Assembly: GCF_048403405.1 (NCBI RefSeq) | Contig: NZ_CP183129.1 | Length of the DNA stretch: 64,000 nucleotides | Source: Escherichia coli | Lineage (GTDB): Bacteria > Pseudomonadota > Gammaproteobacteria > Enterobacterales > Enterobacteriaceae | Reading direction: 5' to 3' (one strand) | In this document: piece after piece, positions 46,177 to 49,283 of the stretch | Layout of the letters: every line of letters starts with the position of its first letter | Position numbering within the stretch: position 1 is the first letter of the stretch | Notes under the pieces: model-generated | What the model was told of the DNA's origin: nothing | Database searches by the model: none | Seen by the model: the letters and a program-made list of their open reading frames with translations, nothing else | Position numbers and translations under genes: made by a program

Positions 46177-47595
46177 ATGGAAACCAATATCGTTGAAGTA
46201 GAGAACTTTGTTCAGCAGTCAGAAGAGAGGCGGGGTAGCGCCTTTACGCAGGAAGTGAAACGCTACCTGGAGCGCTACCCGAATACGCAATATGTTGATG
46301 TTTTACTTACCGATTTGAATGGTTGCTTCCGTGGAAAACGTATTCCTGTTTCAAGCCTGAAGAAGCTCGAGAAAGGGTGTTATTTCCCGGCCTCGGTATT
46401 TGCAATGGATATTCTGGGTAATGTAGTAGAAGAAGCGGGCCTGGGTCAGGAAATGGGCGAGCCGGATCGTACCTGTGTTCCTGTTCTCGGTTCCTTAACC
46501 CCTTCTGCCGCCGATCCAGAGTTTATAGGTCAGATGCTCCTGACCATGGTCGATGAAGATGGCGCTCCCTTTGACGTTGAGCCGCGGAACGTTCTTAACC
46601 GCCTGTGGCAGCAGCTGCGCCAGCGCGGATTGTTCCCGGTCGTAGCGGTAGAGCTGGAGTTCTATTTACTGGATCGCCAGCGCGACGCTGAAGGGTATCT
46701 GCAACCGCCCTGCGCGCCCGGCACCGATGACCGCAATACACAAAGCCAGGTTTACTCCGTTGATAATCTCAACCACTTCGCCGACGTGCTCAATGATATT
46801 GATGAACTGGCGCAGTTACAGCTGATTCCGGCAGATGGAGCGGTCGCTGAGGCCTCGCCAGGTCAGTTTGAAATCAATCTTTACCATACCGATAACGTGC
46901 TGGAAGCTTGCGATGATGCGCTGGCACTAAAACGCCTGGTGCGTCTGATGGCAGAAAAGCATAAGATGCACGCCACTTTTATGGCGAAGCCGTATGAAGA
47001 GCACGCGGGCAGCGGGATGCATATCCATATCAGTATGCAAAATAACCGTGGCGAGAACGTGCTTTCTGACGCGGAAGGCGAAGATTCGCCGCTGCTGAAA
47101 AAGATGCTTGCCGGGATGATTGACCTGATGCCGTCATCAATGGCGTTGCTGGCACCAAACGTGAACTCGTATCGCCGCTTCCAGCCAGGTATGTATGTAC
47201 CGACGCAGGCGTCGTGGGGCCATAACAACCGCACCGTCGCCCTGCGTATTCCGTGCGGCGATCGCCATAATCACCGCGTGGAATATCGCGTGGCGGGTGC
47301 CGATGCCAACCCGTATCTGGTGATGGCGGTGATTTTTGCCGGTATTTTGCATGGCCTTGATAACGAACTGCCATTACAGGAAGAAGTCGAAGGTAACGGG
47401 CTGGAACAGGAAGGCTTACCCTTCCCGATTCGTCAGAGCGATGCCCTGGGTGAGTTTATCGAGAATGATCACCTGCGCCGCTATTTAGGCGAACGCTTCT
47501 GCCATGTCTATCACGCCTGTAAAAATGATGAGCTGTTGCAGTTTGAGCGCCTCATCACAGAAACAGAAATTGAGTGGATGTTGAAAAACGCGTAA
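46177..47595 (+). CDS. puuA: Glutamate-putrescine ligase (glutamine synthetase family)
   Basis: ORF 46099..47595; start at METNIVEVENF (472 aa). Confidence 0.9.
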   Translation: METNIVEVENFVQQSEERRGSAFTQEVKRYLERYPNTQYVDVLLTDLNGCFRGKRIPVSSLKKLEKGCYFPASVFAMDILGNVVEEAGLGQEMGEPDRTCVPVLGSLTPSAADPEFIGQMLLTMVDEDGAPFDVEPRNVLNRLWQQLRQRGLFPVVAVELEFYLLDRQRDAEGYLQPPCAPGTDDRNTQSQVYSVDNLNHFADVLNDIDELAQLQLIPADGAVAEASPGQFEINLYHTDNVLEACDDALALKRLVRLMAEKHKMHATFMAKPYEEHAGSGMHIHISMQNNRGENVLSDAEGEDSPLLKKMLAGMIDLMPSSMALLAPNVNSYRRFQPGMYVPTQASWGHNNRTVALRIPCGDRHNHRVEYRVAGADANPYLVMAVIFAGILHGLDNELPLQEEVEGNGLEQEGLPFPIRQSDALGEFIENDHLRRYLGERFCHVYHACKNDELLQFERLITETEIEWMLKNA

Positions 47596-47603
47596 TACCC
47601 CTT

Positions 47604-47625
47604 GCGGGGTTGTTTCATCGGCCTG
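47604..47625 (+). terminator. Intrinsic terminator downstream of puuA
   Basis: Hairpin ACCCC-ttgc-GGGGT followed by TGTTTC. Confidence 0.55.
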
Positions 47626-47897
47626 AGCGGAGCCAGGCCTGACATTTGCTGGTAATCCAGACATTTTCCGGATGTCGCGTTATGGAGCGCAGGCGGCAAC
47701 GGGCTTCCGTTAACGATTAAGACTGTGACGAGGAAATGAGATGATGCCGATGATTAAATCCCCGCATGGCGAGGGAGGCTGCGTATGCGCCCCTCCTGCG
47801 ACTGACTGGACTCCGCCCCCTTTGCTTCCCTTGCTAAACAGGTTTGATTTCAGGTCGACACGACCGCGAACCTTATTACGCAGGGGAGGCAGCAATT

Positions 47898-49283
47898 ATG
47901 GCTATTAATTCACCACTAACTATTGCTGCGCAATCTGGCAAAACCCGTCTGCGAAAATCACTGAAATTGTGGCAGGTGGTGATGATGGGTCTGGCCTATC
48001 TCACGCCGATGACCGTATTTGATACTTTTGGTATTGTCTCCGGCATTAGCGACGGTCACGTTCCGGCGTCCTATTTGCTGGCGCTGGCGGGCGTGCTGTT
48101 TACCGCTATCAGCTACGGCAAACTGGTTCGCCAGTTTCCGGAAGCCGGTTCGGCCTATACCTACGCGCAAAAGTCGATTAACCCGCACGTCGGATTTATG
48201 GTCGGCTGGTCATCACTGCTGGATTATCTCTTTTTGCCAATGATCAACGTTTTATTGGCGAAAATCTATCTCTCCGCCCTCTTCCCGGAAGTGCCGCCGT
48301 GGGTGTGGGTGGTAACCTTCGTCGCCATTTTAACCGCCGCGAATCTGAAGAGCGTCAACCTGGTCGCTAACTTCAATACCCTGTTTGTACTGGTGCAAAT
48401 CTCCATCATGGTGGTGTTTATCTTCCTGGTGGTTCAGGGACTGCATAAAGGAGAAGGCGTTGGCACAGTCTGGTCACTTCAGCCGTTTATCAGCGAGAAC
48501 GCGCACCTGATCCCGATTATTACCGGGGCGACGATTGTCTGTTTCTCCTTCCTCGGTTTCGATGCGGTGACCACGCTTTCGGAAGAGACGCCGGACGCCG
48601 CACGCGTGATCCCAAAAGCCATCTTCCTGACGGCGGTATACGGCGGCGTTATCTTTATCGCTGCGTCGTTCTTTATGCAGCTGTTCTTTCCCGATATCAG
48701 CCGCTTTAAAGACCCGGACGCCGCACTGCCTGAAATTGCGCTGTACGTCGGCGGCAAGCTCTTCCAGTCGATTTTCCTCTGCACCACGTTTGTGAACACG
48801 TTAGCGTCTGGCCTGGCTTCACATGCCAGCGTGTCGCGTCTGCTGTATGTGATGGGGCGTGACAATGTGTTTCCGGAGCGCGTGTTTGGCTATGTGCACC
48901 CGAAATGGCGCACGCCAGCGCTGAACGTCATTATGGTCGGGATTGTTGCGCTGTCGGCGCTGTTCTTTGATTTAGTCACCGCGACAGCATTGATTAACTT
49001 CGGTGCTCTGGTGGCATTTACCTTCGTAAATCTGTCGGTGTTTAATCATTTCTGGCGGCGTAAAGGAATGAATAAAAGCTGGAAGGATCACTTTCACTAT
49101 TTGCTGATGCCGCTGGTTGGCGCGCTGACGGTGGGTGTGCTGTGGGTTAACCTCGAGTCAACGTCACTGACACTCGGTCTGGTATGGGCTTCGTTAGGCG
49201 GCGCATATTTGTGGTATCTGATCCGCCGCTATCGCAAAGTGCCGTTGTATGATGGTGACAGAACGCCGGTGAGCGAAACGTAA
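47898..49283 (+). CDS. puuP: Putrescine importer (APC superfamily)
   Basis: ORF 47844..49283; start at [10 protein letters not shown] (461 aa); 12-TM APC-type permease. Confidence 0.9.

Follow-up and report, generated by a model that had tools for sequence, protein, structure and literature searches.

Is the short open reading frame (ORF) in the spacer between puuA and puuP of Escherichia coli a leader that governs synthesis of the putrescine importer PuuP, a small protein with a task of its own, or a chance frame? We considered this question in a 64,000-nucleotide stretch of E. coli DNA from contig NZ_CP183129.1 (the window, in whose coordinates positions are given throughout). The ORF is the annotated small gene ymjE, and we consider it probable that ymjE is a cis-acting relay, or leader, upstream ORF (uORF), whose translation unmasks the puuP ribosome-binding site (RBS) and feeds initiation there. 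Three lines of comparative evidence carry this view: a reading frame and stop position held fixed across Enterobacterales, a hairpin that joins the puuP Shine-Dalgarno (SD) sequence to a strand inside the uORF, and a conserved RNA domain that joins the SD and start codons of the uORF itself to sequence further upstream.

An annotated small gene overlaps the puuP start

The elements at the junction are as follows.

47730–47734, plus strand: SD sequence of ymjE, GAGGA, within the conserved GACGAGGAAAUGAG
47741–47908, plus strand: ymjE ORF, 55 codons counted from the first ATG or 54 counted from the RefSeq start (47744), closed by the stop codon TAA at 47906–47908
47898–47908, plus strand: 11-nt overlap of ymjE and puuP in different frames, from the puuP ATG (47898–47900) to the ymjE TAA (47906–47908)
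47898–49283, plus strand: puuP, putrescine/proton symporter by RefSeq annotation, the gene served by the leader

In three RefSeq genomes, a coding sequence named “protein YmjE” or “YmjE family protein” (54 amino acids) corresponds to window positions 47744–47908 in strand, frame, and stop, and a coding sequence is present at this position in 30 of 30 records sampled across the match ranking. The Pfam family PF23692 (YmjE-like) matches the product with E = 1.2e-42 and 144 bits against a cut-off of 27, residues 2–55 aligning on profile positions 1–54 of 54 and thus over the full length; no NCBIfam model matches YmjE, although RefSeq uses that name. Over this locus the window is 100% identical to E. 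coli strain ST2747, and its YmjE is 98% identical to that of K-12, from which it departs by a single Q-to-R change. The first-pass annotation of this DNA had placed a 55-codon frame behind a GAGGA motif at 47730–47734, opening at 47741 and ending at 47908, 11 nt past the puuP ATG, in a spacer of about 300 bp. Each of these coordinates holds, and the spacer, counted from the puuA stop at 47595, measures 302 nt; what that annotation overlooked is that the ORF is already annotated as ymjE and that a structured RNA lies upstream of it. Six nucleotides separate the SD from the ATG at 47741, and another ATG follows in frame at 47744, while the terminal TAA is built from puuP codons 3 and 4 (AUU AAU).

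Chromosomally tagged YmjE of K-12 has been detected by immunoblot, and the same paper noted that ymjE had scored positive in a tetracycline ribosome-profiling screen and that it is situated directly upstream of puuP (VanOrsdel et al. 2018, PMC6001520). The searchable literature contains no paper that gives ymjE a function or ties ymjE or its leader to puuP regulation, and, judged by the same literature, the conservation of the uORF across Enterobacterales, the two covarying RNA structures that flank it, and its kinship with yoeI appear to be new. A two-codon mini-ORF (ATG AGA TGA) at 47736–47744, in another frame, also follows the ymjE SD and overlaps the ymjE start codons, and is probably a mere by-product of the conserved AAAUGAGAUGAUG.

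Frame and stop position are conserved across Enterobacterales

Our comparison drew on 80 puuP loci of other species, fetched with PuuP as the query to avoid bias, and the frame statistics refer to the 52 Enterobacterales loci with a long spacer upstream of puuP. Every one of these has an ATG-started uORF of 55–72 codons in the +2 frame, with the conserved SD and usually tandem ATGs. The genera represented are Escherichia, Pseudocitrobacter, Klebsiella, Raoultella, Citrobacter, Enterobacter, Cedecea, Trabulsiella, Lelliottia, Huaxiibacter, Buttiauxella, Pluralibacter, Franconibacter, Shimwellia, and Hafnia, together with many Serratia. Across the 52 loci the sense frame contains no stop codon, whereas the other five frames hold 94–183 stops and are each open in only 0–8 loci; composition-matched shuffles of the uORF stay open about 10% of the time. 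The GAGG of the ymjE SD is invariant in 47 of 47 aligned leaders. PuuP identities among the loci range from 66 to 99%, and the loci are therefore not recent horizontal copies of one sequence.

The position at which the uORF ends is equally fixed, at +9 to +11 of puuP in all 52 loci. Codon 3 of puuP ends in T in every locus (ACT in 23, ATT in 18, GCT in 10, TTT in 1), and in 33 of these it is a four-fold degenerate ACT or GCT. Codon 4 is AAY, AAA, or AGA, such that the uORF stop is retained even where this codon specifies lysine or arginine rather than asparagine.

These data bear directly on the simplest alternative, also raised in the first-pass annotation, that the ORF arose by chance in a G+C-rich spacer, is nonfunctional, and yields its detected product as translational noise. 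The ORF is indeed short and of unusual composition, its protein level is low, and protein searches with YmjE return matches in Escherichia and Shigella alone; this confinement, however, reflects fast divergence rather than absence elsewhere. A chance frame would not be expected to keep its SD, start, and stop in 52 loci in which the other frames are closed, to show a coding signature at its N terminus (below), or to have the puuP codon that forms its stop fixed at a synonymous position. With frame, SD, tandem ATGs, and stop position kept across some 15 genera, the comparative evidence effectively excludes this explanation.

An antisense gene was also considered and rejected: the low antisense ratio of nonsynonymous to synonymous substitution rates (dN/dS, 0.40–0.75) occurs in the wobble-sharing frame and is an artifact of shared third positions, and antisense frames hold stops in 44–50 of the 52 species. 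Among the fetched records, one titled Chryseobacterium sp. 18061 (L033) contains a puuA-leader-puuP arrangement of Enterobacteriaceae type, its PuuP and PuuA being 88% and 90% identical to those of E. coli; this record is probably mislabelled or contaminated.

The puuP Shine-Dalgarno sequence is paired to a strand inside ymjE

How might translation of ymjE influence puuP? The relevant structure spans the last third of the uORF and comprises the following elements.

47883–47889, plus strand: puuP SD, GGGGAGG, at a spacing of 8 nt from the puuP ATG; it falls within ymjE and forms part of the hairpin's 3′ arm
47822–47892, plus strand: SD-sequestering hairpin, from folding and consensus pairing
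47826–47830 with 47884–47888, plus strand: anti-SD UUCCC (inside ymjE) paired with GGGAG, as in E. coli
47833–47834 with 47880–47881, plus strand: GC:GC pairs of the hairpin
47841–47846 with 47867–47872, plus strand: inner stem, GGUUUG:CGAACC

The E. coli hairpin has a predicted stability of –35 kcal/mol (z = –6.4), which none of 200 shuffled sequences equaled, and the puuP AUG lies 6 nt beyond its end. In the consensus, built from 35 core Enterobacteriaceae leaders, the inner stem reads GGUUUG:CAAACC, and the helix between anti-SD and SD takes the forms CCCCC:GGGGG, CCUCCC:GGGAGG, CCCCG:CGGGG, and UUCCC:GGGAG in different genera, its pairs covarying as CG/UA and CG/GC. Positions assigned to the hairpin are paired in 96.3% of cases, compared with 35–53% when partners are slid; seven of 13 pairs have changed on both sides, and the covariation score was reached in none of 500 shuffles. 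Even in Serratia, where the peptide is very different, the same hairpin design recurs as UUUCCCC:GGGGAAG.

In classical translational coupling, genes overlap and the upstream stop codon lies within a few nucleotides of the downstream start. In the ermC leader and in secM-secA, the downstream SD is held in a hairpin whose other arm belongs to the upstream ORF and which the upstream ribosome opens. Both features are found at ymjE-puuP, where the stop falls within a few nucleotides of the puuP start and the puuP SD is predicted to be locked by a strand inside the uORF; the modeled anatomy is that of classical RBS unmasking combined with termination-reinitiation coupling. The suggestion of the first-pass annotation that the frame might be a leader coupling puuP translation to upstream decoding gains support accordingly, both from the covarying hairpin with its second arm in the uORF and from the termination of the uORF on the puuP start. 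There are differences as well: ermC and secM are switched by demonstrated drug- or secretion-dependent arrest, whereas at ymjE-puuP a structured RNA would additionally gate the leader ORF.

Two other regulatory designs were tried and rejected. An attenuator of the trp or his type, with an intrinsic terminator, does not fit: the sole terminator-like site in a scan of 47400–48100 precedes the leader, and no U-run follows the hairpin at 47822–47892, which is succeeded by CAGCAAUUAUGG. Nor is a three-segment switch of the ermC type conserved, in which the codons for GEGG near the start of the uORF would pair with the anti-SD in competition with the helix between anti-SD and SD (mean z = –0.34); strong pairing of this alternative kind is limited to Lelliottia, Huaxiibacter, Trabulsiella, and a small number of others, and Citrobacter, the Cedecea group, and Serratia lack it.

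Two further observations concern E. coli alone. Its ymjE contains an extra G-rich segment, GGCGAGGGAGGCU (47768–47780), and an extra C-rich segment, GCGCCCCUCCUGCG (47789–47802), which can pair with the anti-SD or the puuP SD; full-length minimum free energy and centroid folds disagree on their pairing, which is lineage-specific and not conserved. Separately, strain CFSAN061770 carries an IS1 element (L085, 2825–3522) inside ymjE at approximately window position 47867, between the anti-SD arm and the puuP SD. YmjE is cut short by this insertion, and puuP would no longer be coupled to the leader.

Selection acts on the first 14 codons of YmjE

If ymjE serves as a relay, what becomes of the peptide it encodes? 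Within six clades, dN/dS in the uORF frame is 0.32–0.57, as against 0.7–1.7 in shifted frames and 0.01–0.05 for puuA and puuP, and YmjE of E. coli and Klebsiella are 35–43% identical, compared with 92% for PuuP. An apparent dN/dS of 0.61 for puuP in Serratia is an artifact of start-coordinate offsets and was disregarded. Constraint is distributed unevenly along the frame.

47741–47782, plus strand: conserved N-terminal motif encoded by the first 14 codons, consensus MMQMFKYP(H/Q)GEGG, in E. coli MMPMIKSPHGEGGC
First 14 codons: dN/dS 0.14 (0.09 without the Citrobacter type), with dS about 1.4 and saturated
Middle of the uORF: dN/dS 0.60 and many insertions and deletions, with dS about 1.4
5′ arm of the hairpin within the uORF: dN/dS 0.64, with dS lowered to 0.81
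Tail of the uORF over the puuP SD and start: dN/dS 0.71, with dS lowered to 0.66

The YmjE peptide as a whole is weakly constrained and fast-evolving, strong selection on amino acids being confined to its first 14 codons. In that segment third positions are free (TTC/TTT, TAC/TAT, CAT/CAC, GAG/GAA, and all four glycine codons) while the amino acids are kept. The comparison of synonymous with nonsynonymous change that the first-pass annotation had proposed as a check on the frame therefore comes out in its favor, the frame being open in 52 loci and dN/dS over the first 14 codons being 0.09–0.14. In the last third of ymjE, by contrast, lowered dS and the invariant rare codons CTA and AGG point to constraint at the nucleotide level, which we attribute to the RNA hairpin described above.

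One reading of the selected N terminus is that YmjE is a sensory or arrest peptide, in which the N-terminal motif of the nascent chain makes the ribosome pause when putrescine or another polyamine is sensed, and the pause either holds the hairpin open or blocks the puuP start, tuning importer synthesis to the polyamine level. Not only are synonymous sites saturated while the first 14 amino acids are held, but a similar beginning, M-x-Q-x-F-x-hydrophobic-P/A, is found in YoeI and in YoeI-like uORFs that precede importers of the plaP type (below). E. coli uORFs that sense or respond to compounds of the polyamine pathway exist, namely speFL (bioRxiv 10.1101/604074) and mdtU (PMC7815308). SpeFL acts on speF in this manner, and a like role for MdtU at mdtJI has been proposed. 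Yet the motif itself is not uniform: Escherichia has a degenerate version (MPMIKSP), Citrobacter a replacement (MFKNPPRVS), and Serratia a different sequence (MTAITV). Its distance from the anti-SD and the stop also varies, from about 16 codons in E. coli to about 24–28 elsewhere (by some 10–15 codons among genera), and therefore fits poorly with the fixed geometry of the exit tunnel. The C-terminal residues next to the stop, for their part, are set by the puuP SD and start and for that reason cannot be read as an arrest motif. We regard peptide-mediated sensing as possible, if unlikely; it is compatible with a relay and would refine that model rather than replace it.

A second reading takes YmjE to be a free-standing small protein acting in trans, for example on PuuP or another Puu enzyme, with the overlap reflecting ordinary operon packing. 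The tagged protein can be detected (PMC6001520), its N-terminal motif is under purifying selection, and RefSeq names the paralogous YoeI a membrane protein. The peptide, however, evolves about ten times faster than its neighbors and has diverged between E. coli and Klebsiella far beyond PuuP, tolerates large insertions and deletions in mid-ORF, and is lost completely in some Serratia, while conservation outside the N terminus is largely that of nucleotides. E. coli YmjE is rich in proline, glycine, and arginine, with an isoelectric point of 9.8, is of low abundance, and lacks a hydrophobic segment (highest 15-residue hydropathy, 0.27). A role in trans, which would again be compatible with a relay, seems to us doubtful.

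A conserved RNA domain encloses the start of ymjE

What sets the frequency with which ribosomes enter ymjE? The approximately 140 nt upstream of the uORF are more conserved than the uORF itself and fold, by consensus, into the following elements, bounded by a terminator-like site.

47597–47610, plus strand: terminator-like G+C-rich hairpin ACCCCTTGCGGGGT followed by a T-rich stretch, directly after the puuA stop, forming the upstream boundary of the leader
47608–47750, plus strand: structured 5′ domain of about 140 nt, from the consensus fold
47612–47618 with 47741–47747, plus strand: P0, closing helix containing the tandem start codons, GCAUCAU:AUGAUGC
47620–47639, plus strand: P1 hairpin
47648–47660, plus strand: P2 hairpin
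47662–47668 with 47732–47738, plus strand: Px, CAUUUCC:GGAAAUG (5′ strand CAUUUUC at these window positions), which includes the ymjE SD in its 3′ strand
47674–47678 with 47693–47697, plus strand: P3, GUCGC:GCGGC

P1 and P2 covary. Positions assigned to the domain are paired in 97.7–98.2% of cases, compared with 25–50% when partners are slid, and the covariation score was reached in none of 500 shuffles. In E. coli, the P0 strand GUUUCAU pairs one register upstream, onto 47736–47742. A covariance model of the domain (R1) matches window positions 47608–47760 with E = 5e-33 and finds the domain in Shimwellia, where no puuA lies nearby, with E = 2.5e-33. In Franconibacter, likewise an R1 match, Px has changed on both sides to UUUUUCC:GGAAAAA, and in Serratia the SD is engaged by a helix of analogous kind, AUUUCUUC:GAGGAAAU. 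A scan of both strands of 47000–48500 against Rfam 15 returned no match at E ≤ 1.

On comparative grounds the domain has the general makeup of a riboswitch-like element, being predicted to contain several helices, compensatory changes, and the RBS of the ORF it would regulate, with ligand binding hypothetical. A regulatory protein is another candidate partner. Three GGA motifs that do not vary, located in the loops of P1 and P3 and in the ymjE SD, fit the pattern of CsrA-bound leaders, and a Serratia hairpin loop, GUACAGGAC, resembles the CsrA consensus ruACArGGAugu (PMC5694010). Among the peaks listed in the supplements of a crosslinking and immunoprecipitation sequencing study of CsrA, none falls in puuA, puuP, or ymjE, the operon being weakly expressed in the conditions used; a peak is recorded inside the plaP coding region of E. 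coli K-12, 85–250 nt into the gene (PMC5694010, supplementary file 3).

The site at 47597–47610 is the only terminator-like one in 47400–48100; a hairpin occurs there in many genera, with variable sequence. Its T-rich tail overlaps the 5′ strand of P0, and termination and leader folding could therefore interact. A sigma-70 promoter scan of 47400–48100 found no site, and conservation does not extend upstream of the 5′ domain, for which reasons we propose no dedicated puuP promoter.

The leader travels with puuP and has a paralog before plaP

Rearranged loci show that the leader belongs to puuP rather than to puuA. In Shimwellia (L012), the leader and uORF precede puuP although puuA is absent and an unrelated hydrolase gene lies upstream, and in Hafnia (L042), an aminotransferase gene has come to lie between puuA and the leader. 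The relay module itself varies. Three Serratia species with a short spacer (L043, L047, and L061) have no uORF, and there a 5′ domain and SD of the Serratia type drive puuP directly. Two Erwinia species (L048 and L044) have short uORFs of 25 and 41 codons, unrelated in appearance, which end in TAATG and ATGA overlaps with puuP. What is constant in these comparisons, wherever a uORF exists, is termination at the puuP start. Within E. coli, approximately 19% of complete genomes (1,052–1,053 of 5,426) have no megablast match to leader or puuP, the two being missing together (query 47560–49200). Six matches lie on plasmids.

The E. coli paralog of puuP, plaP, provides a second example of the arrangement. 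It is preceded by yoeI, a uORF of 20 codons (MGQFFAYATVITVKENDHVA), which in E. coli DH1 (L084, 30856–30918, minus strand) overlaps the plaP start by exactly 11 nt. As in ymjE-puuP, the uORF ends 11 nt into the importer gene, at a stop formed from codons 3 and 4 (CAU AAC in plaP), and the product begins with M-x-Q-x-F; unlike ymjE, E. coli yoeI has lost both the mid-ORF segment and the hairpin that sequesters the SD. Longer YoeI-like uORFs of 69–77 codons, with their stop at +11, precede puuP/plaP-like genes in Edwardsiella (L066 and L069), in Photorhabdus (L076 and L079), and in a second Serratia copy (L083), and can be aligned with the YmjE type over their entire length (hhalign, 81%, E = 1.2e-5). 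The two types have in common the M-x-Q-x-F N terminus and a (D/E)-Y-G-(P/A) motif, although part of the similarity stems from shared SD and start constraints. A search with model R1 did not find the puuP-type 5′ domain upstream of yoeI/plaP or of the Edwardsiella or Photorhabdus uORFs.

The plaP leader has also supplied the only experimental hint, by analogy, of coupling in the ymjE/yoeI family. plaP alone complements poorly, whereas yoeI-plaP complements fully, and an effect of yoeI on PlaP expression has been suggested (Halvorsen et al. 2024, PMC11630599). That restoration of full PlaP function by the uORF lends further weight to the leader-coupling option of the first-pass annotation, coupling at ymjE-puuP itself being putative.

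A proposed relay and the points that weigh against it

Taken with the stop position and the two structures, we propose the following sequence of events. The 5′ domain at 47608–47750 would pair the ymjE SD and start codons and so set the frequency of ymjE initiation. A ribosome that has entered ymjE would unwind the 5′ arm of the hairpin at 47822–47892, which otherwise would bury the puuP SD, and would terminate 8–11 nt past the puuP AUG. Termination there would leave the puuP start unfolded, with a ribosome or 30S subunit positioned for reinitiation, and by these steps PuuP synthesis would come to depend on translation of ymjE. The comparative evidence makes this cis-acting relay probable in our estimation, with regulation of ymjE initiation by the 5′ domain as its putative first stage.

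Several points weigh against this proposal. A pure relay does not account for why amino acids are so strongly selected over the first 14 codons, and tagged YmjE was among the least abundant of the small proteins compared (Weaver et al., bioRxiv 10.1101/511675). The strong SD that puuP itself possesses may permit some independent initiation when the hairpin breathes; the Serratia species without a uORF likewise imply that a relay is dispensable in principle. As to the RNA, the structures were predicted from the same alignments that were used for pair counts, so that the agreement is somewhat inflated, and this holds for the 5′-domain alignment that takes in Franconibacter and Shimwellia: there 97.7% of cells pair, against 28–50% with slid partners, and 13 of 28 pairs show changes on both sides, but two Franconibacter rows were fitted to the model, which favors the structure. 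P0 and P3 hardly vary and are therefore supported by conservation rather than covariation. Taken by itself, the 5′ domain of E. coli shows no exceptional stability (z = –1.05), and its support is therefore comparative.

A more ambitious version of the scheme can be entertained as speculation, and we think it improbable as a whole: the RNA at 47608–47750 might be a new metabolite or polyamine sensor, or the site of a regulatory protein, and might form with the YmjE N terminus a two-stage post-transcriptional switch that matches synthesis of the putrescine importer to the polyamine state, with related leaders serving the puuP/plaP family throughout Enterobacterales.

Relation to other polyamine leaders and implications

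The relay proposed for ymjE would not be without precedent among polyamine genes. In E. coli, mdtU is a uORF with a conserved part for which pairing to the mdtJ RBS has been predicted (PMC7815308). Like ymjE, mdtU lies in the long leader of a polyamine transporter, in that case the spermidine exporter MdtJI; translation of mdtU is needed for spermidine induction and expression of the downstream gene, a dependence that in ymjE we infer. The two systems differ in that mdtU stops 106 nt before mdtJ, without overlap, that Rho-dependent premature termination is part of the mdtU system, and that conservation of mdtU is strongest at the C terminus, whereas amino-acid selection on ymjE falls at the N terminus; there is no sequence relationship between them. 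SpeFL is an ornithine-sensing arrest peptide with an N-terminal sensor part, in which the position of the ribosome controls speF (bioRxiv 10.1101/604074; summarized in PMC7815308). Here too a leader ORF lies ahead of a polyamine-pathway gene, but SpeFL has 34 residues, arrests the ribosome at its own stop codon, and exerts its effect chiefly through a block of Rho, and no sequence similarity to YmjE is shown.

Both ymjE and yoeI belong to the validated small proteins of E. coli that are without known function. The most novel part of the locus is its conserved 5′ RNA structure, which had not been described. For those who work with these transporters, puuP or plaP constructs made without their leaders may under-express the importers, as has already been seen for plaP. 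If ymjE is an RNA-gated relay uORF, PuuP, the main putrescine importer of the Puu pathway, would gain a post-transcriptional layer of control above repression by PuuR, and polyamine transport would join speFL-speF and mdtU-mdtJI to furnish the third and fourth cases of uORF-based control.

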